Below are positions 972 through 25,684 of a DNA stretch of 32,000 nucleotides, in pieces; within the stretch, counting starts at the first letter, position 1, and every line of letters begins with the position of its first letter. The position numbers and the translations under genes were made by a program. This DNA comes from an uncultured archaeon (GTDB lineage Archaea > Asgardarchaeota > Jordiarchaeia > Jordiarchaeales > Jordiarchaeaceae): assembly GCA_964510585.1 (NCBI GenBank), contig CAZECW010000139.1, positions 1 to 32,000 of the forward strand, in the 5' to 3' direction. Below the pieces are notes generated by a model, which saw nothing but the letters and a program-made list of their open reading frames with translations, had not been told where the DNA came from and searched no databases.

Positions 972-1487
972 CTATTTGGTTGTTTCTTTGTTTGTAGCGT
1001 CTGGTGGATCTCTTTTTAGCCATTCTTTGTAGAATGCGTCTATGTCTGGTAGGAAGTCGAATATTGGTGGGTAGAATGGTGGAACTGCTTCGACGTCTAG
1101 TAAGGTTTTGCACTGGGGGCAGAAGTATTCTCTCAGTTCTTGGTAATTGATGTTGGTGGACATATATTTGGGATATATTTCCATTAGTTTTTCTTCGGTG
1201 TCTCTCACGTATATAAGTGCGTTTAGTTTCCAATTTTCTCGGTAGTCGCCGAACTCGTAGCCGCAGTCACACTTGATGATTCTTTTTCCCTCCTTGGCCA
1301 CTATGTAGAGATGCTCTGCGTATGGCAGTATGATTTTTTCGCTCCATGGTACTTTTTCCTGTAGTATTTCAAGGTATTTGTCGAAGCGGTCTGTGTCTTT
1401 GGGTGAGCTCAGCATTTCCTTAATTTCAGGCCAGGAAAGTTTTCCCTCGATGAGTTTTCTAATTCTCTCCTTAGTGTAACGCGTCAT
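972..1487 (-). CDS. acxC: Acetone carboxylase gamma-subunit-like protein
   Basis: 171 aa with CxC (KCDCGYEFG) and CxxC (YFCPQC) zinc motifs, plus HLYIV, ENWK and REYFCP motifs. It is the third gene of the operon. Confidence 0.85.
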   Translation of the reverse strand: MTRYTKERIRKLIEGKLSWPEIKEMLSSPKDTDRFDKYLEILQEKVPWSEKIILPYAEHLYIVAKEGKRIIKCDCGYEFGDYRENWKLNALIYVRDTEEKLMEIYPKYMSTNINYQELREYFCPQCKTLLDVEAVPPFYPPIFDFLPDIDAFYKEWLKRDPPDATNKETTK

Positions 1488-1500
1488 TCAGAACCACCTC

Positions 1501-3750: not shown

Positions 3751-3753
3751 TCC

Positions 3754-8038: not shown

Positions 8039-8685
8039 TTGAGTGAAGTCTTGAATAAAATTGCCAAGTCTATCGAAGAGTTGGATGGAAAAGAAGCCGA
8101 GAAATTGGTGAGGAAGGCTCTGGACGAGGGCGTTGACCCGGTTAAGATTTTGGAGGATGGAATTATAGCCGGAGTCAGAGCCATTGGAGAAAAGTTTGAA
8201 AAAAGGAGTACTTTTTAGCCGAACTTTACGAAGGCGGTGAAATAGCGGAGAAACTGGTGGAAATTGTGGGACCTAGGATACCCAAGGAGGCAGGTGGGGC
8301 ACGCAAGAGAGTGGTTATTGGCACAGTGCACGGAGACCTACATGATATAGGTAAGAATCTTGTAGCTATGCAGCTTACCATGGCGGGCTTTGAAGTTAGA
8401 GATCTAGGCATAGATGTTCCCGCAATGAGATTCATCGAGGAGGCGGAGAACTTCAAAGCAGATATTATAGCTATGTCATCTCTCTTGATGGCCACAATGA
8501 TGAATATGGCAGAAGTTGTGAACCTTCTAAAAGAGCTTGGCTTGAGAGACAAATACAAAGTACTGGTGGGCGGTGGACCCATAAATCCCGCTTTAGCTCA
8601 AATGTTTGGAGCAGACGGATACGCTGAGAACGCTGTGGAAGCGGTAAAGGTCGCCAAAAAGTTGGTGGGCTTAGGAGGTGCTTAA
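8039..8685 (+). pseudogene. Corrinoid (B12-binding) methyl-acceptor protein, MtmC/MtaC-like, split by a one-base frameshift in an A6 run (8199-8204)
   Basis: TTG at 8039 after GAGGTGG gives a B12 cap domain (EGVDPVKILEDGIIAGVRAIGEKFEK), which stops at TAG 8216-8218. The -1 frame continues KEYFLAELYEGG...GDLHDIGKNLV (DxHxxG). Adding one A restores a 215-aa protein. Confidence 0.85.
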
Positions 8686-8688
8686 AAA

Positions 8689-10059
8689 ATGGTTAGAATA
8701 AAAGACATACAGGAAAGAGCTCTAACAGGACCAGTTATGAAGGAGAGAGAATATGATAAAATGCTTTCCAAAAGGGTTCGCGAATTAGTAAAAGACTACG
8801 ACATAAAATTTGACATGAACCAGATTATTCCAGATGACAGTGTGGCTGACGATGTTTTCAAAGCAGGATTCGACCTCCTAATAGACGTAGGCATCTACCA
8901 TCTGGACACTAACAGGAATATAAAATTCACAGAGAACGAAATAAAAGAGATGATTAAAAGCCGTCCCAGTGAGGTAAAATTCGGAACCGGCAAAGACCAA
9001 ATAACAATCAAGAATAGAAAACCCGAGGAAAAGACGAAACCAGTGATAACCACTGGAGGAGGCATTCTCAGCGAAGACATGTTCCTCCCGATAGTAAAAT
9101 CCTGCGCGCAAGAACCTACATGTCAGGGAATTAACGGCTTCAGCTTAATTAGCGCATGGGGCCTAGATAACAAAACGGGAACTCCGGGGGAAATTATGTG
9201 TGCCATAGCTGAGGGATTATGGAACAGGGAAGCTGTAAAAACCGTAGGAAAACCAGGTCTTTATATAGGCTTAGCAGGGGCTAGCGCACTATCACCCGCA
9301 GGAGCCATAGCAGCCTTCCACCCTGACGGGTACACCAAAGAAAACGCGCAGATACCCATACACCTCTTCAACGAACTCAAACTAACTTGGAGCAGATTCA
9401 TACTAGCCACATATGCTCGACTAAACGGTATAGTGCCCTGGACTTCTTACGGTGCGGCCATAGGACTCCTCTTCCGAAATTCTGAGGAGGCATCTGTAGG
9501 AGCCATCGCCGCTCTGCTAGCGGAACTAGCCTATGGGCAGGGGTCCCTCTGTATGGGCGGCGGCATGGGATCAGATGGCATGGTAATGAGAAGAGAGTCC
9601 CTAGCCTCGGGTGCTACTTGCACGTTAGCTTTGACTAATAATCTTCATGTCCCTGTGGGAGGGGTGGGCGGCGGTGGCGGTTACGCAGGACCTTGCACCG
9701 AGATGCGTGTTTACGAAATCGCAATAATAAATCTGATGAGTGTAGCATCAGGAGCCGGCTGGCTCTGGTACAGTGGAACTCTAAGAACATTGATTAACTA
9801 CTGCACTGGTATGGAGGGTAGAATAATGGGTGAAACAGCCCGCGCCATAGCTGGAATGAAAAGAGCCGACGCCAACGAATTAATAAATAAACTCTTACCC
9901 AAAATAGAAGACAAGGAAAACCCGGAAAAAGCACCTATAGGTAAGAGCTTCATGGAATGCTATGATATCAAAACCTTAACTCCATCAAAAGAATACACAG
10001 ACCTCTACGCAAGGGTAAAAAAGGAACTCATAGATTACGGCATAGAGTACGAGTACTAA
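8689..10059 (+). CDS. mtmB: Monomethylamine methyltransferase MtmB homolog without pyrrolysine
   Basis: 456 aa with FKAGFDLLIDVGIYHLDTNR, NELK, AGPCTEM, TGMEGRIMGETARA and KSFMECYDIKTLTPSKEY, all matching MtmB. There is no in-frame TAG. Confidence 0.85.
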   Translation: MVRIKDIQERALTGPVMKEREYDKMLSKRVRELVKDYDIKFDMNQIIPDDSVADDVFKAGFDLLIDVGIYHLDTNRNIKFTENEIKEMIKSRPSEVKFGTGKDQITIKNRKPEEKTKPVITTGGGILSEDMFLPIVKSCAQEPTCQGINGFSLISAWGLDNKTGTPGEIMCAIAEGLWNREAVKTVGKPGLYIGLAGASALSPAGAIAAFHPDGYTKENAQIPIHLFNELKLTWSRFILATYARLNGIVPWTSYGAAIGLLFRNSEEASVGAIAALLAELAYGQGSLCMGGGMGSDGMVMRRESLASGATCTLALTNNLHVPVGGVGGGGGYAGPCTEMRVYEIAIINLMSVASGAGWLWYSGTLRTLINYCTGMEGRIMGETARAIAGMKRADANELINKLLPKIEDKENPEKAPIGKSFMECYDIKTLTPSKEYTDLYARVKKELIDYGIEYEY

Positions 10060-10524
10060 TCGCGCTCCAGCAATCCAAAACTTACACACATCCACCTCTT
10101 TTTTTGCGGTATAATCCCCAAATTAGATTTGTTAGAAAATATAAATCTTTACAAAAATAGGCCTCGCCTGAATCCAAACTATTAATATATGTAAAAGTTT
10201 TTGGTGTAACTCTCTTAATGTTTGAATTTGTGGAGGGTTTTTTACACCTTTTTCTAAAAGTCGTTTTTTCCTCCTTTTTGCTCAAAGAAACCATTTTATG
10301 TCTTCTTTCATAGAGAGACTTTAACTCAAAAAACCCAAACATCCTCCAGTTGAACACATTCCAAAAAAGACTTTTTACACGCCCTCATAAGTTCTAGAAA
10401 TTGATATAAGTTTGGTGCCCTGTCTCTAAACTTAAAGAATTGTTAACCAGGCATCGTCGCAAACCAATTCCCAAAATTTACCTTGAAAATCAAGGAAGGG
10501 TAATATTGTTTGGAGGACTCGAAA

Positions 10525-12507
10525 ATGTTGTTGTTTGACCCCATCAAGATTGGAAGCATGGAGATAAGAAATAGAATATTTTTACCAGCAATGCATTTGG
10601 GCTACTGTGTGAATAACTTTGTGGATGATAGGATTGTTAATTTCTATGAGGCCCGTGCTAAGGGTGGTGCAGGCTTGATTATGGTTGGCGGCTGCGCCAC
10701 TGAGCCTCTGGGAACCGGGTTGCCCAACATGATGAGTTTAAGTGATGACAAATATATTCCGGGTATGAGGAGATTGGCTGAAGCTATAAAGAGGCATGGA
10801 TCTAAAGCTGCTGTTCAACTTTTACATGTGGGTCCACAGACTTGGACTTTTATTCTTGGCACTCAGCCTGTTTCTGCCTCAGCCATAAAGTGTAAGCTGA
10901 CTGGTGAAATGCCCCGGGAGATGACTATTCAGGAAATTGAGCAGAGTGTTGAGAATTTTGCTTTAGCGGCAAAGAGGGCTAAGAGTGCTGGATTTGATGC
11001 TGTTGAAATCATTGGGGGAGTGGGCTATTTGGTGGCTCGCTTCTTATCGCCAAGAACCAATGTGCGAAAGGATCGGTATGGGGGAAGCGTTCAGGGAAGA
11101 GTCAGGTTTGCAGTAGAGATTATTGAACGTATTAAGGAGAAGTTGGGCAGAGACTTTCCCGTGATTTTTAAGCTTTCTGGCGACGAGTTTATGGAGGGTG
11201 GAAACACCATTGAAGAAACTAAGGTTATCGCAAAGGAACTTGAGAAGGCTGGTGCCGACTGTTTTAATGTGGCTGTGGCTTGGCATGAATCCCCTGTCCC
11301 TCAAATCACCATGAATGTTCCAAGGGGCGCCTTTGCCTATCTCGCCGAGAAGGTTCGCGAGGTGGTAAGCGTCCCTGTTATTGCAGGAAACAGGATTAAC
11401 GACCCCCTTGTTGCTGAGAAGATTTTGAGGGAGGGCAAGGCAGACATCATCTCTCTAGGTAGAGCGCTCATCGCGGATCCCGAATTTCCAATAAAGGCTA
11501 AGGAGGGAAGATTTGCGGAGATCAGGAAATGCTTGGCGTGTAACCAGGGATGCTTTGATCATGTATTCTCAGCTCAACCAGTGGAGTGCCTAGTCAACCC
11601 TGATGTTTCAAGGGAAGCGGAGTACCAAATTAAACCTGCAGCAAAAAGAAAGAAAGTTTTGATTGCTGGAGGCGGTCCTGCAGGTATGGAGACTGCAAGA
11701 GTTGCTAAACTTAGGGGACATGATGTAACCCTCTATGAGAAGAGCGACAGGCTTGGAGGACAGCTGAGCTGGGCTGCGGTTCCTAAGGAAAGAAGGGAAT
11801 TGGGAAACCTTGTAGATTACCTAGCGTACCAGATGCAGTTACTAAATGTTAATGTAGTTTTGGGGAAGGAGGTTACCCCAGAAGTTGTTAAACAGTTGAA
11901 CCCGGATGTACTGGTTGTAGCCACGGGAGTAAACTGGATTGTACCGGATATACCGGGCGTTGATAGGCCCAATGTGGTAATGGCTCTAGACGTATTGGCT
12001 GATAGGGTGTCCGTTGGCAAAAAAGTGGTAATTATTGGAGGTGGTGGCGTGGGCTGCGAAACCGGGCTTTACCTTGCGGAGAAGGGTTCCATAGATGCAG
12101 AAACCATGCTCTTCCTTGTTAAATGGGGAGCTATGGATCTTGAGAGCGCCTACAAGCTGACTAAGAGCAATAAGGAAATTGTGATAGTGGAAATGCTGGA
12201 CAAAATGGGACAGGATATTGGGGGTAGTACTCGCTGGACAATACTGAAAAGCCTTTCCCAAAGTGGAGTGAAAATGCTAACAAACTCCAAGGTAAAAGAA
12301 ATAACCGAGAAGGGTGTAAAGCTGGATAATGGGGATGTCTTGGAAGCCGACACCGTTGTTATAGCAGTTGGATCAAAGCAGAACAATGAACTCTTCGAAA
12401 AAATGAGGGGCAAAGTCCCAGAAATCTATGCGGTGGGAGACTGCGTAACTCCCAGAAAAGCCATGGACGCAATGCACGAAGCGGCAGCAGTAGCCAGAAA
12501 AATATAA
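10525..12507 (+). CDS. fadH: NADH:flavin oxidoreductase / 2,4-dienoyl-CoA reductase (FadH-like: OYE barrel, 4Fe-4S, FAD/NAD domain)
   Basis: Motifs GYLVARFLSPRTN (catalytic Tyr position), AWHES (His position), CLACNQGC...C (Fe-S), GGGPAG and GGGGVG. ATG at 10525 follows GGAGG. Confidence 0.75.
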   Translation: MLLFDPIKIGSMEIRNRIFLPAMHLGYCVNNFVDDRIVNFYEARAKGGAGLIMVGGCATEPLGTGLPNMMSLSDDKYIPGMRRLAEAIKRHGSKAAVQLLHVGPQTWTFILGTQPVSASAIKCKLTGEMPREMTIQEIEQSVENFALAAKRAKSAGFDAVEIIGGVGYLVARFLSPRTNVRKDRYGGSVQGRVRFAVEIIERIKEKLGRDFPVIFKLSGDEFMEGGNTIEETKVIAKELEKAGADCFNVAVAWHESPVPQITMNVPRGAFAYLAEKVREVVSVPVIAGNRINDPLVAEKILREGKADIISLGRALIADPEFPIKAKEGRFAEIRKCLACNQGCFDHVFSAQPVECLVNPDVSREAEYQIKPAAKRKKVLIAGGGPAGMETARVAKLRGHDVTLYEKSDRLGGQLSWAAVPKERRELGNLVDYLAYQMQLLNVNVVLGKEVTPEVVKQLNPDVLVVATGVNWIVPDIPGVDRPNVVMALDVLADRVSVGKKVVIIGGGGVGCETGLYLAEKGSIDAETMLFLVKWGAMDLESAYKLTKSNKEIVIVEMLDKMGQDIGGSTRWTILKSLSQSGVKMLTNSKVKEITEKGVKLDNGDVLEADTVVIAVGSKQNNELFEKMRGKVPEIYAVGDCVTPRKAMDAMHEAAAVARKI

Positions 12508-12809: not shown

Positions 12810-12833
12810 AGTTAATTTCGGAGCGTGAAATAT

Positions 12834-13784
12834 GTGTCTGTCTTAACTGCTTGGAGAGAAAAATGTATCATAACCTGTGCCCTTACGGGATCCGCTACTT
12901 TTCCCTCCCAGACACCCTACCTACCCATAACACCGGACCAGATATCTGACGAGGCAAAAAAGGCCTGCGACGCAGGCGCAGCAGTAGTCCACGTCCACGT
13001 GAGAGACCCCAAAACCGGCATGCCCACAGCCGACCTAGGCGTGTGGAGAGAAACCCTAACAAAAATAAAGTCAAAAACAGACGTAATAGTCTGCTGCACA
13101 ACAGGAGGGGGAGCCGGAATGACCCCCGAACAAAGAATAGCGGTGGTTCCAGAATTCAAGCCAGAAATGTGCTCCTTCAACGTGGAATCAATGAACTTCG
13201 CAGTATTCCCCATAGCGGAAAGAATTAAGGAGTGGAAATATCCCTGGGAAAAACCAGTAGTGGAAATGAGTAAGGGACTGATTTTCCAGAACAGCTTCAA
13301 AGACCTCGAAGTATTCTCCAAAACAATGTATGAAAACAACGTTAAACCCGAACTTGAGATTTATAGCACGAGTGGCATCTGGAATGCGGGAGCCATGCTC
13401 CGCTTTGGATGGCTTAAATTCCCCCTGCACATGCAATTCGTCCTAGGGGTGCTCGGGGGCACAGGAAACACACCATGGGAACTAATACACTTCTATGACG
13501 AAGCCGCCCGACTCTTCGGCACGCAAAACTTCACCTGGTCAGTGATCGGAATCGGGTACCCAAGAGAGTTCCACTTGGGAGCCATGGCGGCAATAATGGG
13601 AGGACATATAAGAGTTGGGCTAGAGGACAACATTTACATAGCCCATAGAGAGTTGGCCAAGAGCAATGCAGAACTAGTCGCCAAGATGGTTAGGATAGTC
13701 AATGAACTGGGAAGAGATGTGGCCTCACCTGACGAAGCAAGGAAAATGCTGGGACTAAAAGGACTGGACAAGGTCAACTACTAA
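12834..13784 (+). CDS. Beta-keto acid cleavage enzyme (BKACE / Kce / DUF849 family), copy 1
   Basis: Motifs ITCALTG, PITPDQI, HVHVRD (Zn His pair), TTGG, KPELEIY and GGHIRVGLEDN. The GTG start at 12834 aligns with the paralog start. Confidence 0.9.
   Translation: MSVLTAWREKCIITCALTGSATFPSQTPYLPITPDQISDEAKKACDAGAAVVHVHVRDPKTGMPTADLGVWRETLTKIKSKTDVIVCCTTGGGAGMTPEQRIAVVPEFKPEMCSFNVESMNFAVFPIAERIKEWKYPWEKPVVEMSKGLIFQNSFKDLEVFSKTMYENNVKPELEIYSTSGIWNAGAMLRFGWLKFPLHMQFVLGVLGGTGNTPWELIHFYDEAARLFGTQNFTWSVIGIGYPREFHLGAMAAIMGGHIRVGLEDNIYIAHRELAKSNAELVAKMVRIVNELGRDVASPDEARKMLGLKGLDKVNY
12896..13102 (+). repeat. Near-identical 207-bp tract shared with 14267-14473
   Basis: Direct comparison gives 206/207 identical bases (only gagacccc vs gagaccct differs). 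The rest of the two genes has many synonymous differences. Confidence 0.9.
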
Positions 13785-13820
13785 AAAAACAGCCGCCTTT
13801 CTTCTTTTTTGCTGTTTTTT
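13784..13820 (+). terminator. Hairpin/U-tract terminator after BKACE-1
   Basis: A 10-bp inverted repeat (aaaaaacagc ... gctgtttttt) with T-rich tracts lies immediately after the stop codon. Confidence 0.55.
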
Positions 13821-14204
13821 ATGAAAACTGTCAGTATTTAGAACAACAGTTGAAAGTCTTTTTGGAGGCGGAGGCTCTACAAACATGTCGCAATAAAAGC
13901 AAAACCCATGGTGTTCTTACCAGTTTTCCTATTGAAGGGATTAGTCTGAAGCCCAATTAATTCCTATAAGAGTTCTCTGATGCAACCCCTAATTTTCCAT
14001 ACAAGCGTCTTATGAAACCATCACTCTTGCCCTGTTGATAGATTTTACAATTCGCGTAGAACAAGGGGGAAGAGATTTTCGGGTAATGCGGTGAATGATT
14101 ACTTTGAGGAGCCAGCAAAAGTTCGATGCAAGGTACCAATAAATTAATATTTGTCATATTCTTCTAAAAATATGGGTTGGAAGAATTTTTGGAGGTGTGA
14201 AGAA

Positions 14205-15173
14205 ATGTCATTTTTAACTGCTTGGAGAGAAAAATGTATCATAACCTGTGCCCTAACTGGGTCAGTTACTTTTCCCTCCCAGACACCCTACCTACCCATA
14301 ACACCGGACCAGATATCTGACGAGGCAAAAAAGGCCTGCGACGCAGGCGCAGCAGTAGTCCACGTCCACGTGAGAGACCCTAAAACCGGCATGCCCACAG
14401 CCGACCTAGGCGTGTGGAGAGAAACCCTAACAAAAATAAAGTCAAAAACAGACGTAATAGTCTGCTGCACAACTGGGGGAGGAGCAGGAATGACAGCCCA
14501 GCAGAGAATAGCGGTGGTTCCAGAATTCAAGCCAGAAATGTGCTCCTTCAACGTAGAATCAATGAACTTTTCAGTGTTCCCACTCGCAGAGAGAATAAAG
14601 GAGTGGAAAACTGACTGGGAAAAGCCCCTAGTAGAGTGGAGTAAGGGAATGATCTTCCAGAACTCATTTGCAGACCTTGAAGTGTTTGCCAAAACTATGT
14701 ATGAAAACAATGTTAAACCGGAACTTGAGATTTACAGCAGCAGTGGCGTCTGGAACGCGGGTGCTATGCTCCGCTTTGGATGGCTTAAATTCCCCCTACA
14801 CATACAATTCGTCCTAGGAGTATTGGGAGGAACGGGCAACACACCCTTTGAATTGATGCACCTTTACAACGAGGCTAGCCGACTCTTCGGCACACAAAAC
14901 TTCACTTGGTCAGTAATCGGAATAGGATACCCGCAAGAATTCCACCTAGGAGCGATGGCGGCAATAATGGGAGGCCACATAAGAGTGGGCATGGAAGACA
15001 ACATTTATGTGGGTTACGACCCCGTGAAGAAGGAGCGTATACTTGCAAAGAGCAACGCTGAACTGGTTGCAAAGATGGTTAAGATAGTTAACGAATTGGG
15101 AAGAGATGTAGCTTCACCTGACGAAGCAAGGAAAATGTTGGGACTAAAGGGATTAGACAAGGTCAACTACTAA
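14205..15173 (+). CDS. Beta-keto acid cleavage enzyme (BKACE / Kce / DUF849 family), copy 2
   Basis: Same motifs as copy 1. ATG at 14205 follows GGAGGTGTGA. It carries a short insertion (YVGYDPVKKERILAKSN) relative to copy 1. Confidence 0.9.
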   Translation: MSFLTAWREKCIITCALTGSVTFPSQTPYLPITPDQISDEAKKACDAGAAVVHVHVRDPKTGMPTADLGVWRETLTKIKSKTDVIVCCTTGGGAGMTAQQRIAVVPEFKPEMCSFNVESMNFSVFPLAERIKEWKTDWEKPLVEWSKGMIFQNSFADLEVFAKTMYENNVKPELEIYSSSGVWNAGAMLRFGWLKFPLHIQFVLGVLGGTGNTPFELMHLYNEASRLFGTQNFTWSVIGIGYPQEFHLGAMAAIMGGHIRVGMEDNIYVGYDPVKKERILAKSNAELVAKMVKIVNELGRDVASPDEARKMLGLKGLDKVNY

Positions 15174-15243: not shown

Positions 15244-16029
15244 TTATAGTTCCCTTAGGGTTCCTTTTAGGTCTATTCGGGTTCTTATTACTTGGAGTTC
15301 TTCTTTTGTGGGTGGCTCTGTTTCTGGAACGTCATCTGGAATTATGAGTTGGAATCCAGTGTTGTTTTTAACCTCTTCGATCGATACTCCTGGGTGTACT
15401 GATTTTAGGCGCATTCTTTTGGTCTTTTCTTCGAAGTCCATTATACAGAGAGGTGTTAATACATATTTGGGGCCTCCTCCAGGTAGGCCTAGTTTTTTTC
15501 TGGAGTTTCCCCCGTCTCCCCAGCCTACGGCGGTTATGTATTCGCATTTGTCCACGAAAATCATTGGGTGGTGCCTCTCAGAGTAGATATAGTAGCGGCC
15601 CACGTAGGTTGTTATTGTTGATTGTCCAATGGCGCCTGGTCCTCGGAACATCAATTTTGGGTACTGTCCGCCAATGCCGAGCAGGTTTATGTTTCCATAT
15701 TTGTCTATTTGGAGGCCTCCGAAGAAGCTGACATCATACCTTCTTATAGTATCCCAGAGGTGCTCATATTCTGGTACTTCTTCGCAGTATTTGAATCCAG
15801 AGTAGTCTGTGACGAATTCAAAACTTTCTATTTGTTTCACGTCTGAGAAGTTGGCGCGGTAAAACTGTAGCCAGCGCATGTTTGGTGCGTGTGTTAGGTG
15901 TGCGAGGAGTACGCCTGCTCTACACGCGGGTAGGTTGGCTCCTATTAGTACTGTTTCGCCGTCTTTGATTTCTCGGGAGATGAAAGCAGCTAGGAGCTCT
16001 CTTATTGAGTAATCTTTGTTTCTGCTCAA
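15244..16029 (-). CDS. Class I CoA-transferase-fold beta subunit (GctB/IpdB-like) lacking the canonical catalytic Glu
   Basis: Motifs GGLQIDKYGNIN, GPGAIG, RKKLGLPGGGPKYVLT and NTGFQL. THAPNMRWLQF56YR replaces the usual APxxxxxxESG. Confidence 0.8.
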   Translation of the reverse strand: MSRNKDYSIRELLAAFISREIKDGETVLIGANLPACRAGVLLAHLTHAPNMRWLQFYRANFSDVKQIESFEFVTDYSGFKYCEEVPEYEHLWDTIRRYDVSFFGGLQIDKYGNINLLGIGGQYPKLMFRGPGAIGQSTITTYVGRYYIYSERHHPMIFVDKCEYITAVGWGDGGNSRKKLGLPGGGPKYVLTPLCIMDFEEKTKRMRLKSVHPGVSIEEVKNNTGFQLIIPDDVPETEPPTKEELQVIRTRIDLKGTLREL

Positions 16030-16042
16030 TTTTTTTCACCTT

Positions 16043-16933
16043 CTACCATCTGTATAGAGAGAGGAGTTTCTTCATACCGATTACTTCAAGATACTCTTCG
16101 TGTGAATTTGGTTCAAGGATGTATTTTTTGAGGTACTGGTTGAAGGGCTCAGGGTTTCCCTTTGTGTAAGCCTTGGCCGCCTCCACGTACTCTTTGAGGT
16201 GTTCCCTGTCTAAATCGTAGAATCCATCGCTTGAGAAGGGGTGGGAACCATATGGGGTGGGCACCACCGCATCAACCCCGTAAATCTTTGTTAGGTGTGG
16301 GTTTCTCTTTATGTCTTCGTTAGAAACCACTTTTTCTACTTGAAAGACGCATTTTTTGGAGGCTCTCGCCATTAGAATGTCTGCGTAGGTGTTTCCCACG
16401 TACTGTATGTTGCCATATGGGTCGCTCCAGGATGCGTGAAGTATGGCTACGTCGAGTTCCAGTGCGGGGACAGCTAGCAATGTTTGTCCCTTTATGGGGT
16501 CTTGGAAGTATTTTAGATCGGGGTTAATGTCGGGCAGGCAGGTGCCAACGCCGCCTAGCCAGGGTAGGAAAGGTAGCCCCTCGGCCGCGGCTCTTAGTGC
16601 GGTGCATAGGATTGCTTCGTCGCACTCCCACATTTGAATGGTGCCGTCCACTACTGCTTTTCGGAAGAATGGACCTATGGGTGCGAGTGATTCTCCTCCC
16701 ACGTAAGCAGTGGCCACCTTCTTTGCGACACCCGCTCCGATCATCAAGTCAATTTCTAGTCCCGCTGCGGGTGAGCCTACTACTGTCAGGTTTTTTACAC
16801 CGTTCTTAATGATTTGGCGAATTATGGCCATGGGGTGATTTGCAGTTAGAAGGCCCCCGATGCCTACGGTCATACCGTCCTTTATCATTGAGGCTGCCTC
16901 TCTTACACTCATAATGACTTCTTTTCTGGTCAT
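16043..16933 (-). CDS. Class I CoA-transferase-fold alpha subunit (GctA/IpdA-like)
   Basis: Motifs IKDGMTVGIGG, HPMAIIRQ, ECDEAILCTALRAAAEGLPFLP, DVAILHASWSDPYGN and PYGSHP. Confidence 0.85.
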   Translation of the reverse strand: MTRKEVIMSVREAASMIKDGMTVGIGGLLTANHPMAIIRQIIKNGVKNLTVVGSPAAGLEIDLMIGAGVAKKVATAYVGGESLAPIGPFFRKAVVDGTIQMWECDEAILCTALRAAAEGLPFLPWLGGVGTCLPDINPDLKYFQDPIKGQTLLAVPALELDVAILHASWSDPYGNIQYVGNTYADILMARASKKCVFQVEKVVSNEDIKRNPHLTKIYGVDAVVPTPYGSHPFSSDGFYDLDREHLKEYVEAAKAYTKGNPEPFNQYLKKYILEPNSHEEYLEVIGMKKLLSLYRW

Positions 16934-17223: not shown

Positions 17224-18357
17224 TTATGTTTTTTGTTGTAGGGCGAGGACCGCCGCTTCTATTATTGTTTTTGTGAATTCTTCAAGTGTGAATCCTGTGT
17301 AGTCTATTTTGTTACTTTTGAAGGCTTCAACTATGGCGTTGCTTATGGCCTTCTCGTTTTCCGCTGATATTCCTTTGAGGGCGTTAACCACTTTTTCCAG
17401 ACCGTCTGCTGGGGAGAGTAGAAAGTCGCCAGTTATGAGAATGTCTCTAATCTTTTTGGTCTTGTCTATGGCTACGCTGGCGTTGATAGTTCTTTCTGAC
17501 TTGTATCTGAAGGTTGCAGCCCTCCAATCGTTGGGCAGTTTACTGTACCATCTACTCTTGGAAACGCTGGTAACTACATCTTCTGCGGTGAGTTTTTTGA
17601 AGCCCTCAGTAATCATTTCTTTTTCTTCCTCGGTGAAGTTTCCGGGTGCAAATTCCATTCCCAGTTTCTGTTTCACAATGGTTAGCAAGAGATTCTTTAC
17701 TTCTTCTTCAGTAGGTGTTCTGGGTGCATCCTTTTCCATGCTACCCGCATACATGGTTACGTCGCGCAACAATTTGTCCTTCAGCTTCTCCTCTGGATAA
17801 ACATAATAATCTGTGAAGAACTTAACGCTGGGGGTAAGCCGGTTGATGAAGGTTCCCACCACAACCCCTTTTCCCCAAATTAGGGAAGTGCTTCCACCCA
17901 ACTTTTTGTCATCTTTTCGAATGTCGCCCGGATGACTATAGTAGGCGTCTAAAACACCCACCCTCATGAAGAGTTCTAGAACCACTTCGCCGGCCCAAAT
18001 CCTCTCAGCCTCCTCCAAATTTGGAAACACGTCCGTGGTTGTCACCAGTACCGCCGCGATTTGGCCCTTTGGGGCATAGTAGGTGCCAGCTCCACTCTCC
18101 CTCCGCCCCACCAGCACACCGTCCCTTTTCACAGCCTTGTACCTAATCTCATCCAAGTCCTCATACTTACCCAGGCTCAGTGATTCTTTACCATGAGAAA
18201 CAAATATAAGCGTGTCTGGAATCTTACCCGCATCACGCATCTTGGACAAAACATCAAAAGCCACAAGCAACTCTACACCAGACATATCAGAAACAATTAG
18301 TCTCCCCTTAGACTGAGTTCTAAACTTCTTCTCCCTTCTTTCCAACTGTTCCAACAC
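17224..18357 (-). CDS. Lipoate-protein ligase A family protein (catalytic plus C-terminal domain), intact paralog
   Basis: Motifs RRESGAGTYY (RRxSGGG-like) and DDKKLGGS (catalytic Lys region), with a C-terminal ILITGDF domain. GTG start at 18357 follows GGAGGTG. Confidence 0.75.
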   Translation of the reverse strand: MLEQLERREKKFRTQSKGRLIVSDMSGVELLVAFDVLSKMRDAGKIPDTLIFVSHGKESLSLGKYEDLDEIRYKAVKRDGVLVGRRESGAGTYYAPKGQIAAVLVTTTDVFPNLEEAERIWAGEVVLELFMRVGVLDAYYSHPGDIRKDDKKLGGSTSLIWGKGVVVGTFINRLTPSVKFFTDYYVYPEEKLKDKLLRDVTMYAGSMEKDAPRTPTEEEVKNLLLTIVKQKLGMEFAPGNFTEEEKEMITEGFKKLTAEDVVTSVSKSRWYSKLPNDWRAATFRYKSERTINASVAIDKTKKIRDILITGDFLLSPADGLEKVVNALKGISAENEKAISNAIVEAFKSNKIDYTGFTLEEFTKTIIEAAVLALQQKT

Positions 18358-18919
18358 AAAAAACACCTCCAACTCAAAGAATAAATCTATGTATTATAAT
18401 CTCCAACCATCTTGGGGCTGTTAATCGTTGAAATTAGAGAAAACCTGTTTTTCTCCACTAAGGAATACATTTTCAGTGATAATCAACATATTTATAATTT
18501 TTGGAGCAAAGAGGGACAAAATGCAGCTTCTCCACATTTGTACCGAGCAAAACTAATCCGTTGCGTATAACCGGCCAAAATGTGGGTAGTAGGAGGAAGC
18601 GAAACTTACTGACAGGCCTCATATAAATAGTTTTTTTGTCGATAGTTTTATAAAGAAAACAAATCCAGAGAAACGAAATCCAGAGCATCGTAAATATGAA
18701 GTGAAGCGTTACCCCTTTAAATGTGAGGCGTTAGTGGCTACAGTGATTCCTCCACCAAAAAATCACACGCGAAAAATGGTGACCAAAATTCGTTAAGACG
18801 CTGCGAACAGTCTTTTGATTAAACCTTAGAGTGGAGGAAAACAAAGGCGGAAGACCCAAATAAGCATTCAAACAAAGAATGGATATTTCGTACTATTCTG
18901 GATTTAAACCAACTTGGGT

Positions 18920-18999: not shown

Positions 19000-20142
19000 A
19001 TGGATAAAGAAGTAGCCATTGTGGGAGTAGCACAAACCAAGTATGAGGAAGAAAAGGCGGATTTACCCTACTCTGAACTAGTTTTCGAAGTCGTCAAAAA
19101 ACTCCACGACGAGCTGGGAATAACTAAAGACGACGTGGGAAGCATAATAACTAGCTCCAACGATTTCAACGACGGAAGAACAATAGCCAGCATGGCCATT
19201 CAGGATGCTTTAGGAGCCGTGGGAAAATCGGAGTCCCGAGTATCGGGAGACGGAGCATTCGCCTATGTCTACGGAGTAATGAGAATACTAGAAGGAACAT
19301 ACGATACAGTGATGGTGGTTTCACACTGCAAGTGTTCCGAGTCAAACATTTACCTTGTAAACAATTCTATTTTTGAGCCCTACTACCAGAGATGGCTGGG
19401 ACTAGACCAGGTCTCTTCGGCGGGATTAATGGCGAACATGTACTCACACAAGTATGGAATCACCCAAGAACAAGCGGCAAAAGTGGCAGTAAAAAACCGC
19501 AAAAACGCTCTAAACAATCCCTACGCACATCTACAAAAAGCAGTTACAGTCGACGAAGTCCTAAATTCCAAAATGATGGCCTACCCCCTCAAAGAACTAG
19601 ATCTACCGCCACTCTCGGACGGAGCTGTAGCAATGCTCCTAACAAACAAAGAGAAAGCCAAAAAATATACAGACACACCAGTGTGGTTTAAGGGCCACGG
19701 CAATTGCACCGACGCCTACTACCTTGGACACCGCAACATGACCGACCTCATAGGACTAGAACTAGCAGCAAGAGAAGCCTACAAAATGGCGGGAATAAAA
19801 AACCCCATGAAGGAAATCGACGTAGCAGAAATCTATGAAGCGTTCACCTACCACGAACTAATGAATTATGAAGCCCTAGGACTATGCAAAAAAGGCGAGG
19901 GAGGAAAACTCATCGACAGCGGACAAACAGAAATGAACGGAACCCTCCCAGTAAACCCCTCAGGAGGCGTACTCTCAAGCAACCCCTCCATGGCCAACGG
20001 ACTAGTTCGTGTAGCAGAAATCGCACTGCAACTAATGGGCAAAGCCGAAAAAAGACAGGTGAAAGACGCCAAAATTGGACTAGCCACAGGAATGAATGGA
20101 ATCTGCTCCCAAGGAAACTGCGTAATCATATTAGAAGCATGA
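19000..20142 (+). CDS. Thiolase-fold protein lacking catalytic Cys/His, Ltp4-like (putative aldolase subunit)
   Basis: LHDELGITKDDVG...NDGR...ESRVSGDGAFA has no Cys where ExACASG is expected. AEIYEAF has Tyr for His, and NPSGGVLSSNP has Asn for His. Confidence 0.75.
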   Translation: MDKEVAIVGVAQTKYEEEKADLPYSELVFEVVKKLHDELGITKDDVGSIITSSNDFNDGRTIASMAIQDALGAVGKSESRVSGDGAFAYVYGVMRILEGTYDTVMVVSHCKCSESNIYLVNNSIFEPYYQRWLGLDQVSSAGLMANMYSHKYGITQEQAAKVAVKNRKNALNNPYAHLQKAVTVDEVLNSKMMAYPLKELDLPPLSDGAVAMLLTNKEKAKKYTDTPVWFKGHGNCTDAYYLGHRNMTDLIGLELAAREAYKMAGIKNPMKEIDVAEIYEAFTYHELMNYEALGLCKKGEGGKLIDSGQTEMNGTLPVNPSGGVLSSNPSMANGLVRVAEIALQLMGKAEKRQVKDAKIGLATGMNGICSQGNCVIILEA

Positions 20143-20161
20143 AAATGAGGAGATGAAAAAT

Positions 20162-21322
20162 ATGGTAAAACAAAAAGTAGCAATTGTGGCAACCGGCCAA
20201 ACAAAACACAGAAGCCGAAGAAGAGACGTCAACATATCCGAAATGATTTATGAAGCAGTAAAAATGGCCCTAGATGAAGCCCAACTCACACCCAAAGACA
20301 TAGACGCCGTCGTTATTGGAAACATGGACCACTTCGAAGGAATAAACTTCTCCGAAATGTGGACCGGAATAGAATCCGCACCTGGATACCTCAAACCCGT
20401 AGTAAAAGTAGCCACAGGGGGAACCACCGGAACCTCCCTAGCAGCATACGGATACTACGCAGTAGCCTCTGGAATGTATGACAAAGTACTAGTAGTGGGA
20501 TGGGAAAAAATAAACGAAGGAGGAGCCACAACCGGAATAGTAACAGCCTTCGACGCCAGATGGGAAAGACCCGCCCTAGCCGGGGCACTAGGCCCCCTCG
20601 CTCTGATGGCTAGTATGTATATGTGGGAATTTGGAGTAACACCAGAACAAGCCGCAAAAGTAACAGTCAAAAACAGAAGAAACGCAGCAAATAATCCCTT
20701 CGCACACCTGCAACAACCCAACATGACAGTAGAAGAAGTGATGAACTCACCAGTAATATCGTGGCCCCTAAGACTCCATGATTGTTGCCCGCAGAGTGAG
20801 GGTGCTTGTGCGATTGTTTATGCGGGTGAGGGTGTGGCTAGGAAGATTAGTGATAATTTGGCGTGGGTTAAGGGTGTGGACACGGGGCACTATTATACTT
20901 ATGGTGGCGATGATGTGATGCATAAGTATCCTGCGGCCAAGATTGCTTCTACCAGGCTTTACAAGAAGGTGGGTATTAGGAATCCGTTGAAGGATTTGGA
21001 TGTGGCTGAGGTTTATGAGCCGAGTAGTTGGGCGGAGCTTATGTGGACTGAGGCTTTGGGTTTCTGTGAGTATGGTCAGGGTGGTAAGTTGTTGGATGAG
21101 GGTGTTACTGAGATGGGTGGTGAGTTGCCAGTGAATCCTTCGGGCGGTGTTATTGCGACGAATCCTATTGGTGCTACGGCGCTTATTCGTGTGGCTGAGG
21201 CTGCGATTCAGGTTAGGGGCCTGGGTGGTAAGCGTCAGGTTCCTGATGTGGAGTTGGCGTTGGCTCATGGTTTCGGTGGTAGTGTTTGGGCGGATCTTAT
21301 GATTTTGGGTAAGGAGCCTTGA
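20162..21322 (+). CDS. Thiolase-fold protein lacking catalytic Cys/His, Ltp3-like (putative aldolase subunit)
   Basis: Motifs GQTKHRSRRRDV, DHFEG, ATGGTTG (no Cys), WEK, NPFAHLQQP, CPQSEGACA, AEVYEPSSWAELMW and NPSGGVIATNPIGA, closely matching actinobacterial Ltp3 as I recall it. Confidence 0.8.
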   Translation: MVKQKVAIVATGQTKHRSRRRDVNISEMIYEAVKMALDEAQLTPKDIDAVVIGNMDHFEGINFSEMWTGIESAPGYLKPVVKVATGGTTGTSLAAYGYYAVASGMYDKVLVVGWEKINEGGATTGIVTAFDARWERPALAGALGPLALMASMYMWEFGVTPEQAAKVTVKNRRNAANNPFAHLQQPNMTVEEVMNSPVISWPLRLHDCCPQSEGACAIVYAGEGVARKISDNLAWVKGVDTGHYYTYGGDDVMHKYPAAKIASTRLYKKVGIRNPLKDLDVAEVYEPSSWAELMWTEALGFCEYGQGGKLLDEGVTEMGGELPVNPSGGVIATNPIGATALIRVAEAAIQVRGLGGKRQVPDVELALAHGFGGSVWADLMILGKEP

Positions 21323-21336
21323 TTTGAGGTGATTTT

Positions 21337-21822
21337 ATGAGTGAGAAGAAGGAAGAGCCTTTTACTATAAATTGGCTTACTGATTTGCCTTATCGTTATG
21401 CTTTGGGACCCGTTGCATCGAAGTTCTTTAGGGTGCTTAAGGAGTCTGGTAAGTTACTGGCGATTAAGTGTAGGAAGTGTGGGAAGGTGTTGTTCCCTCC
21501 GAGGTCTGTGTGTGCGGACTGTTTGGTGGAGATGACTGTGGATGATATGGTTGAATTGAGTGGTGAGGGTTCGCTGGATGGTTTTACTGTGGTTAATTAT
21601 CCTTTTGTGGATCCTAATACTGGTGAGACGAGGCCTTTTCCGTATGGTTATGGTGCGATTAAGTTGAAGGGTACAGATACTTGGATGCTGCATTTTGTCG
21701 ATGAGACGGATCCTGGGAAGATTAAGCCGGGTATGCTGGTGAAGGCGGTGATTAAGCCTAAGAATGAGCGGAAAGGTACTTTAGAGGATATACCCTACTT
21801 TAGAGCGGTTGAGAAGAAGTGA
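21337..21822 (+). CDS. DUF35 zinc-ribbon/OB-fold protein 1
   Basis: KCRKCGKVLFPPRSVCADC followed by an OB-fold segment (GYGAIKLKGTDTWMLH). Confidence 0.9.
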   Translation: MSEKKEEPFTINWLTDLPYRYALGPVASKFFRVLKESGKLLAIKCRKCGKVLFPPRSVCADCLVEMTVDDMVELSGEGSLDGFTVVNYPFVDPNTGETRPFPYGYGAIKLKGTDTWMLHFVDETDPGKIKPGMLVKAVIKPKNERKGTLEDIPYFRAVEKK

Positions 21823-21847
21823 GATTTCAATCTGTGGAGGTTTTGTT

Positions 21848-22288
21848 GTGAGTGAGGATAAGTATTTTCATGGTAGGATTAGGGTGCCTTATAGGCATGT
21901 TGCTGGTGCTTATGCTGGTCGGTTTATTCAGGAGATTGGCAATAATAAGAGGATTATGGGTGTGAAGTGTTCCAGATGTGGTAAAGTGTATGTTCCTCCT
22001 AGGATGGTTTGTTTTGCGTGTTTTGAGAAAATGAAGGAATGGGTCGAAGTTGGCAAGCAAGGTACGGTTAAGGGATTTACGGTGGTTAACTATTCGACGC
22101 CAGTTATGCCGTTGAAGCCCCCCTTTGCTTATGGGATTATTGAGTTAGATGGTTCAAATACTGGTTTTGTGCACATCATTAAGGAGGGTGACCCCAAGAA
22201 GCTGAAGGTTGGCATGCGGGTTGAGGCTGTTTTCAAGAGCAACCCAGAGGGCAACATTTTGGACATTGAATACTTCAAACCAGTATAG
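21848..22288 (+). CDS. DUF35 zinc-ribbon/OB-fold protein 2
   Basis: KCSRCGKVYVPPRMVCFAC, PPFAYGIIELDG and GMRVEAVF. GTG at 21848 follows GGAGG. Confidence 0.9.
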   Translation: MSEDKYFHGRIRVPYRHVAGAYAGRFIQEIGNNKRIMGVKCSRCGKVYVPPRMVCFACFEKMKEWVEVGKQGTVKGFTVVNYSTPVMPLKPPFAYGIIELDGSNTGFVHIIKEGDPKKLKVGMRVEAVFKSNPEGNILDIEYFKPV

Positions 22289-23302: not shown

Positions 23303-24316
23303 TTGGTTTCTAAAGGAGAAGAGATGCTAAGAGAAGATATTGAGAGGGTTCAGGAGCAGAGACTGCAGAGAGAAGTGAAGTACGCTTATAATTATTCTGA
23401 GTTTTACAGGAAAAAATTCGCTGATGCTGGGTTGAAACCTGATGACGTAAAGAGTTTGGATGATTTGTCGAGGATTCCTGTTACCTCCAAGGAGGAGGTT
23501 CTATCCAAGTTTAGTGACAGTGATCCTTTTAGTGGTCGGCTTTGTGTTCCCGTAGATAAGTTGTGGTATATAATTTTACCTCATGAAGCCACGTTGTCTG
23601 GCAGACCACTCTACACTGCATATACTTATAATGATCGCCGGGTTCTTCTGGAACAGTTGACGCGGTTCTTCCGAATGCTTGGTGTTGGAGCTAAGGATTT
23701 AGTTATGACTTCTGGTCAATCTTGGGAGCTTACCCCAAGAGTTCTGGAGAGCGCATTCACTATTCAAGAAACGGTTCAGGATAGGTTAGGGTTCATCAAC
23801 ATGCCTTTGGAGGCTTCCCTAGTTTTTATTGATATGCCTAGAGCCATTTATCTCGGGGAGCAACTTAAACCGAGAATTTTTTTCACCCTAGTATCATACT
23901 TTGATCAGGTCACTCAGGGGATAAAGAGTCAAAAAAAGGTGCCTAAGGATGTTTTTCAGCCGGAAATAATTGTTCTAAGAGAGTTGATGGATGATATGCG
24001 GCTTACAGATGAAAAGCAAAAGGAGTACAAAAGTGAGTGGGGTAGTGAGTTTTATAGAATGTTGGACGTACAGGATACTGCTTTTCTTGCCATGGAGTGC
24101 CCTGAGCACAATGGACTACACGCATGGGAGGACATGTTCATCATAGAGGCATTGAGTAATGGAGAACCAGTGGCTGAGGGTAAGAGAGGAAAGTTGACAA
24201 TAACTAATCTCTGGTCAGAGGCTACACCAGCGATAAGGTGGCAAACAGATTACGAAGTGACTTTGGACAAAAAGCGCTGCAAGTGTGGAGGAAACCATCT
24301 GAGAATTAAGCTATGA
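23303..24316 (+). CDS. Degenerate PaaK-like (phenylacetate-CoA ligase/F390 synthetase family) protein: N-domain only, P-loop eroded
   Basis: Motifs YSEFYRKKF, DLSRIPVTSK, ECPEHNGLHAWED and GKLTITNL...PAIRW. ILPHEATLSGRP stands where STTGTTG is expected, and the protein ends at RCKCGGNHLRIKL before the C-domain. An alternative ATG lies at 23324. Confidence 0.75.
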   Translation: MVSKGEEMLREDIERVQEQRLQREVKYAYNYSEFYRKKFADAGLKPDDVKSLDDLSRIPVTSKEEVLSKFSDSDPFSGRLCVPVDKLWYIILPHEATLSGRPLYTAYTYNDRRVLLEQLTRFFRMLGVGAKDLVMTSGQSWELTPRVLESAFTIQETVQDRLGFINMPLEASLVFIDMPRAIYLGEQLKPRIFFTLVSYFDQVTQGIKSQKKVPKDVFQPEIIVLRELMDDMRLTDEKQKEYKSEWGSEFYRMLDVQDTAFLAMECPEHNGLHAWEDMFIIEALSNGEPVAEGKRGKLTITNLWSEATPAIRWQTDYEVTLDKKRCKCGGNHLRIKL

Positions 24317-24334
24317 AAAAAGGGTTTAGAGTGG

Positions 24335-25684
24335 ATGTTTATGGTAGATTGGAGAAAATACTGGAACGAGCCAATTGAGACTATATCCAGAAAGGATCTA
24401 ATGGAACTGCAATTTAAAAGGTTAAAGAAGCAGTTAAACAACATTTATCATAACTCCTCATATTATAGGGGAGTGATGAGAGAAAGTGGGATTTCGCCAG
24501 ATGATATAAAGTCATTAGGAGATTTTACTAAATTTCCAGTTACCTACAAGGATTCAGTGAGAGAATTGATAAATGCGGGTGACCCCTTCGGCGGCCTATT
24601 ATGCGTTCCATTTGAAGACATAAAATCTATTTATTCCACAACGGGCACTACAGGAATACCTTCAATACATGCTCAGACCAAAGAGGATCAAGAGTACAGC
24701 GCAGAGCAAACTGCTAGGCTAACTTGGATGCAGGGATTTAGGCCAGGAGATGTCCTTTTTTGGCCCCCCGTGAGATGGAACGGGTTCATCTTCGGCGTCA
24801 CCCCGGGACTAGAAAGAATAGGGGTAGTATCAATCACAAATATTTTGTATCCTTTACCCAACTATGCAGACAAAATGGTCTACGCTCTTAAACACCTTCG
24901 CCCTGACGTAATGGCAGTACCAATAGTGATATTTGACGGGTTTCTAGAATCCTGCAAAAGACTTGGGGAAAAACCCGCTGAAATATGTGAAAGCTTGAGA
25001 GCAATTTCAATTGGTTATGGAGATGTTTTAACAAATAGCTATCGGCAAAAGTTAATAAAGGAGGCGAGGCTAGAGCCGGAGAAGATTTTTAGTGGCGGTG
25101 GGGCAGCGGATACCATGATTCATTTGGCGGAGTGTGAAGTACGTGAGGGCACTCATATTTGCGAGGATCTTTATTTGGCTGAGATTCTAGATCTGGATAC
25201 CAAGGAGCCTGTGGGGGAAAATGAAAGGGGCGAATTGATTCTATCGAATCTTTATATGAGAGGCACCCCACTTATAAGGTGGGGTAGTGAGGATATTTCC
25301 ACCTTCAGTAGGGAAACTTGTAAGTGTGGTAGGACTCATGGTAGAGCAACTTGGATTGGTCGAACAGGTTTCCAGCTTAATGTTATGGGTAAATGGATTC
25401 TTCCTTTGGATGTTGATGATCTGTTTATAGATGTGCCGGAGGCTGCGGGTACTCCCTTTACACTTTTCAAGTATAAGAAGGGCGTGATGGAGAAGCTGAA
25501 GATGAAGATGGTTTACGATGGAAGCAAAGGTTTAACCAAAGAGGAGTTCAGAGCGAAGGTTTCTGGAATTATTAAGGAGAAACTGGGTGTTGAAACCGAT
25601 ATTGAAATAGTGGATTCCATAGACGATTTGCCCAAAATTGCCCACAAATATAAAAGAGTTGAAGATCTCACCAAAGAAAGTTAA
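24335..25684 (+). CDS. PaaK-like acyl/aryl-CoA ligase (phenylacetate-CoA ligase family)
   Basis: Intact YSTTGTTGIP P-loop, GELILSNL...TPLIRW, CKCGRTHGR, the hinge IGR and a terminal catalytic-Lys region (KYKRVED). Confidence 0.85.
   Translation: MFMVDWRKYWNEPIETISRKDLMELQFKRLKKQLNNIYHNSSYYRGVMRESGISPDDIKSLGDFTKFPVTYKDSVRELINAGDPFGGLLCVPFEDIKSIYSTTGTTGIPSIHAQTKEDQEYSAEQTARLTWMQGFRPGDVLFWPPVRWNGFIFGVTPGLERIGVVSITNILYPLPNYADKMVYALKHLRPDVMAVPIVIFDGFLESCKRLGEKPAEICESLRAISIGYGDVLTNSYRQKLIKEARLEPEKIFSGGGAADTMIHLAECEVREGTHICEDLYLAEILDLDTKEPVGENERGELILSNLYMRGTPLIRWGSEDISTFSRETCKCGRTHGRATWIGRTGFQLNVMGKWILPLDVDDLFIDVPEAAGTPFTLFKYKKGVMEKLKMKMVYDGSKGLTKEEFRAKVSGIIKEKLGVETDIEIVDSIDDLPKIAHKYKRVEDLTKES

Follow-up and report, generated by a model that had tools for sequence, protein, structure and literature searches.

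A widespread subfamily of CoA-transferase-fold gene pairs without the catalytic beta-glutamate, encoded by an Asgard archaeon and by several bacterial phyla

INTRODUCTION

Glutaconate CoA-transferase of Acidaminococcus fermentans (GctAB; PDB 1poi) and the CatIJ-type 3-oxoadipate CoA-transferases are encoded by adjacent alpha and beta genes, and carry a catalytic glutamate in the beta subunit, Glu54 in GctB. In the related CtfAB this residue is Glu46 of CtfB, which is hydrogen-bonded to Gln98 and whose replacement in the E46A and E46S variants abolishes activity (PMC12400318). It is already known that the fold has been repurposed through loss of this glutamate, as exemplified by IpdAB and AibAB. 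IpdAB, also termed ScdL1L2 (PDB 6co6, 6co9, 6coj, 6con), is the COCHEA-CoA ring-cleaving hydrolase of steroid catabolism; IpdB has Gly57 at the catalytic-glutamate position, and CoA transfer by IpdAB was not detected (PMC5380842). The reaction itself is disputed, with hydration plus cleavage set against isomerisation (bioRxiv 10.1101/2021.06.08.447645). AibAB of Myxococcus xanthus (PDB 5mzw) is a 3-methylglutaconyl-CoA decarboxylase in which the catalytic glutamate is replaced by Cys56 of AibB, a position that tolerates Ala, Ser, Asn or Val (PMC7756340). Because of this tolerance, the identity of the residue replacing the beta-glutamate is not diagnostic of an AibAB-type enzyme.

The pair described here is encoded by an Asgard archaeon of the Jordarchaeia, within a 32-kb window (the whole stretch of DNA that was analysed). 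It belongs to a distinct and widespread subfamily with operons of its own and a marker residue, beta-Glu83; in the tree, IpdAB falls inside a larger radiation of pairs carrying an alpha-subunit glutamate. Judged from its sequence, the pair probably adds water to, or splits, a CoA-bound acid in a widespread breakdown pathway. The literature covered, mostly outside subscription journals, contained no characterised member of the subfamily or of its operons.

THE GENE PAIR AND ITS FOLD

Both genes lie on the minus strand, with the start of beta 13 nt past the stop of alpha. The genes and their key residues are:

16043..16933 (minus strand): alpha subunit gene, 296 aa, ATG start, CoA_trans (PF01144), Gct/IpdA-type fold
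15244..16029 (minus strand): beta subunit gene, 261 aa, TTG start, CoA_trans (PF01144)
16616..16618 (minus strand): codon GAA, alpha Glu106, counterpart of IpdA Glu105 and proposed catalytic base
15862..15864 (minus strand): codon TTT, beta Phe56, in place of the transferase catalytic Glu54
15781..15783 (minus strand): beta Glu83, common to the subfamily and IpdB (E-G-W motif; from conservation and hhalign)

The CoA_trans domain is matched with Pfam E-values of 4.5e-31 in alpha and 9.5e-15 in beta; no NCBIfam model passes its cut-off for either subunit, and Rfam gives zero matches across the window. GctAB, IpdAB and AibAB are the solved structures closest to the pair by sequence and by fold, and GctAB ranks first for both subunits. 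The AF2 model of alpha (pLDDT 96.5) aligns with GctA (1poi_A) at a VIA Z of 37.9 (rmsd 1.5, 286 residues), with IpdA (6co6_A) at 37.4 (rmsd 1.6, 280 residues) and with AibA (5mzw_C) at 32.2 (rmsd 2.0, 259 residues). That of beta (pLDDT 91.5) aligns with GctB (1poi_B) at 29.1 (rmsd 2.2, 247 residues), with AibB (5n03_B) at 27.1 (rmsd 2.0, 234 residues) and with IpdB (6co6_B) at 26.8 (rmsd 2.2, 238 residues). Sequence scores are 143 bits for GctA, 124 for IpdA and 84 for AibA, the lowest of the three solved alpha relatives, and 120, 47 and 42 bits for GctB, IpdB and AibB. A Gct/CatIJ-type fold with adjacent alpha and beta genes is thus present, as seen in PF01144 on both subunits and the Z-scores to 1poi; together with Phe56 this confirms the first-pass annotation, which had described a CoA-transferase-fold pair without the catalytic glutamate. 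By analogy with the solved relatives, the two subunits would be expected to form a heteromeric complex.

Copies that are 95–97% identical occur in three Jordarchaeia/Freyarchaeota genomes, and comparison with four Jordarchaeia-like copies gives a dN/dS of 0.05–0.08, indicative of purifying selection. Decay to a pseudogene is excluded by these values and by the intact reading frames.

LOSS OF THE BETA-SUBUNIT GLUTAMATE

That beta Phe56 stands in place of GctB Glu54, as had been proposed, is borne out by three concordant observations: the codon is TTT, Phe56 pairs with residue 56 of AibB (5n03, a C56V variant) in a gapless HMMER alignment, and the residue falls in the 'AP+8' register, that is, eight residues past a conserved A-P. 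This register holds Glu in 16/16 canonical pairs and, in IpdB, Gly (6/7) or Ser (1/7). A HMMER alignment to GctB introduces a two-residue gap and pairs Glu54 with Arg58 instead of Phe56; beta residues 51–62 are devoid of Glu and Asp, so the acid is missing in either register. Across the subfamily, a beta-glutamate at the catalytic position is found in none of 34 pairs.

Glu83 has the opposite distribution: all 34 subfamily pairs and 6/7 IpdB proteins have it, as against 0/16 canonical beta subunits, and in the hhalign alignment it stands opposite the IpdB glutamate. Its invariance across the subfamily would speak for a canonical transferase that uses another beta-glutamate (Glu68, Glu71 or Glu83). 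However, Glu83 lies opposite Gly79 of GctB, 25 residues away from the catalytic loop; it is also shared with IpdB, a non-transferring enzyme. Glu68 and Glu71, which the first-pass annotation had raised as possible stand-ins for the catalytic residue, fail at the level of sequence, being kept in only 89/121 and 75/121 homologues, respectively, and both missing from one whole subclade. A canonical transferase of this kind, or else a decayed and non-catalytic protein, is accordingly very improbable.

The segment around Glu83 differs between archaea and bacteria. Beta residues 76–90 (window 15760-15802) read S-G-F-K-Y-C-E-E-V in all Jordarchaeia copies and R-x-x-x-W-A-E-x-Y in bacteria, with R77 changed to S, W81 changed to Y and Glu83 kept. 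A shifted substrate specificity is possible, and as the window protein departs from the bacterial consensus here, the bacterial contexts described below may not transfer to it directly. In the Binatia-type subclade, beta position 37 is Glu rather than Arg.

GAIN OF AN ALPHA-SUBUNIT GLUTAMATE

Glu106 ends a W-E-C-D-E motif, followed by the stretch ALRAAAEGLPFLP. It aligns with the position mutated to Ala in PDB 6COJ, the E105A variant of IpdAB, which upholds the equivalence of the D-E106 motif with IpdA Glu105 that had been put forward from the sequence. Its presence in 118/121 close homologues means that Glu106 is not there by chance. In the 2018 work of Crowe, Glu105 of IpdA is reportedly the base, and the PDB title of 6COJ names the E105A variant.

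The same column holds Gln in GctA, Gly in AibA, Asn or His in canonical pairs, and the Gln of the P-Q-G motif in OXCT-type transferases. Gln98 of CtfAB, the hydrogen-bonding partner of the catalytic glutamate (PMC12400318), would probably occupy this column too, which would put Glu106 inside the active site. The alpha-glutamate is found in 34/34 subfamily pairs and 7/7 IpdA proteins and in 0/16 canonical pairs. A census of 78 dereplicated pairs of archaeal, bacterial and plasmid origin counts 52 with the alpha-glutamate alone, 18 with the beta-glutamate alone, eight with neither and none with both. On the tree, this mutual exclusion comes down to roughly a single gain and perhaps one reversal; it rests on few events rather than 78 independent ones, and is therefore no statistical proof.

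In sum of residues, the window pair differs from GctAB and the CatIJ-type enzymes, with which it shares fold and gene order, by the change of beta-Glu54 to Phe and of alpha Gln/Asn/His to Glu. With AibAB it shares the fold and a replaced beta-glutamate (Cys56 corresponding to Phe56), whereas AibA is shorter and has Gly (H-D-G) where the window alpha subunit has Glu106 (C-D-E).

RELATIONSHIP TO IpdAB

The pair resembles IpdAB in its Gct-type fold, the missing beta-glutamate, the alpha-glutamate, a counterpart of beta-Glu83 and membership of the same alpha-glutamate clade. In contrast, it is only 29–35% (alpha) and 23–27% (beta) identical to IpdAB, compared with 40–55% within its subfamily, its beta subunit has a GctB-like R-G-P-G, D75 and R177, it falls outside the IpdAB clade, and its surroundings lack the echA20/ipdC/fadA6 steroid context, in which the reference IpdAB loci do have a crotonase. 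Arg126 of IpdB reportedly anchors the substrate in Crowe's 2018 study, with a role also given to Arg92. Arg126 has no counterpart in the window beta subunit, the F-G-[VL]-R-G of IpdB aligning with R-G-P-G-A-I; beta Arg129 was considered and rejected, as it is the family-wide Arg of the canonical R-L-P-G. Position 96, which may lie opposite IpdB Arg92, is Lys or Arg in 110/121 homologues, the register of this loop being uncertain.

Three actinobacterial genomes encode a subfamily pair together with a true IpdAB. Given this co-occurrence, the separate clade, the lack of Arg126 and the lack of an echA20/ipdC context, the window pair is not an IpdAB orthologue; we infer instead that it works like IpdAB without being IpdAB. 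Cleavage of steroid ring C was rejected as its function on account of the missing steroid operon genes, the separate clade and the co-occurrence with IpdAB.

PHYLOGENY AND DISTRIBUTION

Trees were built with FastTree for the 78 pairs and, from concatenated subunits, by maximum likelihood (ML) for 43 taxa, support in the latter being read by bipartition; GctAB and AibAB themselves were left out and represented by a CatIJ-type pair beside pcaF (L149) and by AibAB-like pairs. In the 43-taxon ML tree, canonical pairs and beta-glutamate-less lineages are split at UFBoot 100, and an alpha-glutamate clade holding IpdAB, several archaeal groups and the window subfamily is recovered at UFBoot 97. Within it, IpdAB and the RGPG clade group at UFBoot 92, seven IpdAB references from steroid operons form a clade (UFBoot 100) with the window pair outside, and the window subfamily is a clade of its own (UFBoot 100), in which the window pair has a near-basal but weakly supported position.

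Members of the subfamily, at 40–59% identity to the window pair, occur in Betaproteobacteria, Acidobacteria, Binatia, Rokubacteria, Deltaproteobacteria, Chloroflexota and Actinobacteria. Holders of the pair include the cultured Nocardioides halotolerans DSM 19273 (L033) and Actinomadura sp. KC345. Among Asgard archaea they are present in 4/6 genomes of the host genus, and a search of 25 other Asgard genomes found no subfamily pair. This distribution fits transfer between bacteria and the host genus, in either direction.

The phylogeny also bears on whether the pair could be an AibAB-type decarboxylase acting on a glutaconyl-CoA-like substrate. AibAB likewise lacks the beta-glutamate (PMC7756340), the beta model fits the folds of AibB and IpdB equally well (Z 27.1 and 26.8), and the TctC-type transporters and TcuA-like genes of betaproteobacterial loci hint at di- or tricarboxylate substrates. 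However, Glu106 is replaced by Gly in AibA, which also gives the lowest alpha score (84 bits; Z of 32 as against 37); the clade of pairs with the AibAB-like pattern (alpha-Gly, beta x-G-x-x-D-P) is a separate one, and decarboxylation would leave the invariant Glu106 unexplained. The first-pass annotation had offered a C–C hydrolase or a decarboxylase; the IpdA-like alpha-Glu106 is in line with the former, while the latter is weakened because of the AibA glycine and the separate clade of AibAB-like pairs, and is improbable. Nor does any subfamily context resemble the known aib operon.

Canonical and non-canonical pairs can be told apart at two positions, beta 54 and alpha 105; the latter pairs radiate broadly, and among them assays exist only for IpdAB and AibAB. 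The AibAB-like clade is made up of three pairs from Asgard archaea (L110, L113, L123), in which alpha has Gly and beta reads I-x-G-x-x-D-P; by this sequence pattern they are candidate decarboxylases. Two further pairs of the family (L132 and L145, the Marinovum plasmid CP010856 182030-182968) are nested in the alpha-glutamate clade, have alpha Ala/Val and a beta Glu, and represent a possible reversal to transferase chemistry.

GENOMIC CONTEXT

Four recurrent operon types surround the bacterial pairs, and the loci are to be read as a few related operon types rather than as independent samples. In Betaproteobacteria (type 1) the order is TctC, acyl-CoA ligase, SDR, alpha, beta, citryl-CoA-lyase-like, BKACE, SDR and a TcuA-like flavoprotein. 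In Acidobacteria (type 2) a crotonase, two thiolase-like and two DUF35 proteins, an acyl-CoA dehydrogenase and a FAD enzyme precede alpha and beta, which are followed by an OYE, a dehydrogenase, an SDR, a VOC protein, PaaK or a canonical OXCT pair in the slot for CoA activation, and a second Glu-less pair. Binatia (type 3) have a membrane protein gene between alpha and beta; its product is a hydrophobic protein of about 200 aa without a Pfam match (L011:7371-7976, L012:7321-7944 and seven more Binatia-type loci). Actinobacteria (type 4) combine two subfamily pairs with ligases, dehydrogenases and CaiB. In Acidobacteria and Actinobacteria the cluster also holds a second Glu-less pair, fused in some cases (L025:15535-16774, L038:15310-16780, L033:12732-14428, L160:18546-20279), which suggests two such steps within one pathway. 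Types 1 and 2 are merged in one locus, which also has a B12 mutase; B12-dependent acyl-CoA mutases near the pair (L161:3091-4715, the P0004 locus, L045:8798-10897) hint at branched substrates.

These clusters are beta-oxidation-like, often with other means of CoA activation. In 35/56 long bacterial loci a separate CoA-activating enzyme is encoded within 8 kb; a citryl-CoA-lyase-like or thiolase-like gene is found in 40/56, a dehydrogenase or reductase in 33/56 and a crotonase in 21/56. A citryl-CoA-lyase-like gene (NF004869) lies immediately 3' of beta in 26/77 bacterial loci. Crotonases occur in none of the 25 lyase-containing loci, and MaoC-type hydratases are absent from the recurrent neighbour clusters and from the Pfam annotations of those loci for which such lists were made.

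The neighbours of the pair in the window are:

10510..12507 (plus strand): OYE/BaiCD-like flavoenzyme, with a homologue directly 3' of the pair in Acidobacteria
12825..15173 (plus strand): two BKACE beta-keto acid cleavage genes (PF05853), convergent on the beta gene
17224..18372 (minus strand): lipoate-ligase-like gene upstream of the pair, on the same strand
19000..22288 (plus strand): two thiolase-like and two DUF35 (ChsH2 Zn-ribbon/OB) genes, divergent from the pair (Pfam, NCBIfam)
23303..25684 (plus strand): two PaaK-like acyl-CoA ligase genes, the first without its C-terminal part (NCBIfam)

The window thus combines the acidobacterial-type set (thiolase-like, DUF35 and PaaK-like pairs, OYE) with two BKACE genes, an arrangement conserved in related Jordarchaeia. 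BKACE also adjoins the pair in loci L002, L003 and L163, and PaaK-like genes are found in L155 and L162. The same thiolase-like/DUF35 four-gene set sits 5' of the pair in Acidobacteria, the thiolase-like proteins of the two groups being 41–57% identical. No crotonase is encoded in the 32-kb window.

PROPOSED CHEMISTRY

It is very probable that the pair is not a canonical class I CoA-transferase, as had been suggested from the sequence, since the beta-glutamate is lost and IpdAB shows no transfer. We lean, by a modest preponderance of the sequence evidence, towards a non-transferase in which alpha-Glu106 serves as the base for IpdAB-like hydration and/or C–C cleavage of an acyl-CoA. What we infer for the pair comprises complex formation, catalytic role, reaction and substrate class. 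The enzyme would no longer make a beta-glutamyl-CoA intermediate, and its acyl-CoA substrate, a branched or cyclic carboxylic acid rather than the steroid COCHEA-CoA, would come from a separate ligase or transferase and be desaturated or oxidised by the neighbouring dehydrogenases. Glu106, on the alpha-side wall of the pocket, would be the general base, as Glu105 is in IpdAB, activating water that would add to an enoyl- or oxo-acyl-CoA, triggering retro-Claisen or retro-aldol C–C cleavage, or both. The thioester would be kept, and the product passed to the thiolase-like/DUF35, citryl-CoA-lyase-like and BKACE enzymes.

Whether C–C cleavage forms part of the reaction is a tentative matter, and we hold it to be possible; hydration alone, a more doubtful proposition, stays viable because crotonases are missing where a lyase follows. 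To our knowledge, no enoyl-CoA hydratase built on the CoA-transferase fold is known beside the crotonases and the MaoC/hot-dog hydratases. It is with some scepticism that we entertain a stand-alone hydratase of this fold making tertiary 3-hydroxyacyl-CoAs for neighbouring lyases. The receiving lyases, just as speculatively, would be the citryl-CoA-lyase-like or thiolase-like/DUF35 enzymes, and the whole, with equal reserve, a branched-acid pathway common to Betaproteobacteria, Acidobacteria, Actinobacteria and Jordarchaeia.

The observation that the whole sequence scores higher against GctAB (143/120 bits) than against IpdAB (124/47) counts against an IpdAB-like enzyme and favours a CoA-transferase that operates without the beta-glutamate, using Glu106 as nucleophile or a ternary complex in the manner of CitF or MdcA. 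CitF (citrate lyase) and MdcA (malonate decarboxylase), which transfer CoA without a glutamyl-CoA, share the fold with the pair (Z 10–17), and the citryl-CoA-lyase-like gene 3' of beta recalls the transferase-plus-lyase layout of citrate lyase. However, both proteins are far more distant than IpdAB, an acyl-CoA ligase is already present in 17/17 long lyase loci, and the sole tested enzyme with the alpha-glutamate and no beta-glutamate showed no CoA transfer (PMC5380842). Such a transferase is unlikely.

An acyl-CoA thioester hydrolase, in which Glu106-activated water would release free beta-keto acids for BKACE, is quite unlikely. BKACE requires free beta-keto acids, and it lies beside the pair in the window and in 23/77 bacterial loci; moreover, the E46D variant of CtfB demonstrates that a carboxylate falling short of the thioester turns the fold into a hydrolase (PMC12400318). 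Against this, the majority of loci have no BKACE, the citryl-CoA-lyase-like enzyme could provide the free keto acid in those bacterial loci that do, and the reported IpdAB reaction differs from thioester hydrolysis.

If the proposed non-transferase chemistry is true, hundreds of genes labelled 'glutaconate CoA-transferase' encode a different enzyme; that automatic annotation mislabels them had been anticipated, and JGI indeed gives this name to homologues. The subfamily would bear on the path of the fold from CoA transfer to C–C chemistry, and would imply a catabolic route in uncultured microbes of soil, fresh water and hot springs, an Asgard archaeon among them.

OTHER FEATURES OF THE WINDOW AND HOST GENOME

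The BKACE genes (12825-15173) are tandem paralogues, about 88–90% identical, whose nearest model is 3,5-dioxohexanoate:acetyl-CoA acetone transferase (NF053538), below its cut-off. Positions 972-5889 hold a complete acetone-carboxylase-like set (gamma PF08882, Hydantoinase_B, Hydantoinase_A), which could in principle supply the BKACE pair with beta-keto acids, and positions 8257-10059 encode a corrinoid protein and an MtmB-family methyltransferase with no in-frame amber codon. In every Jordarchaeia copy read, the gene next upstream of the pair is lipoate-ligase-like; the window has a second one at 142-864, 52–54% identical to that at 17224-18372, and L162:7492-9919 contains an apparent second copy in tandem.

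The host genome carries about nine Gct-type pairs (contigs C101, C211, C118, C60, C193, C10, C129, C29 and C40), at least four of them without the beta-glutamate. The alpha-glutamate is present in those at C101:20576-21418 (beta His) and C211:5212-6051 (beta Gly), neither glutamate is found at C118:11841-12686 (beta Phe, alpha Val) or on C60, and the pairs on C193, C10 and C129 are canonical.
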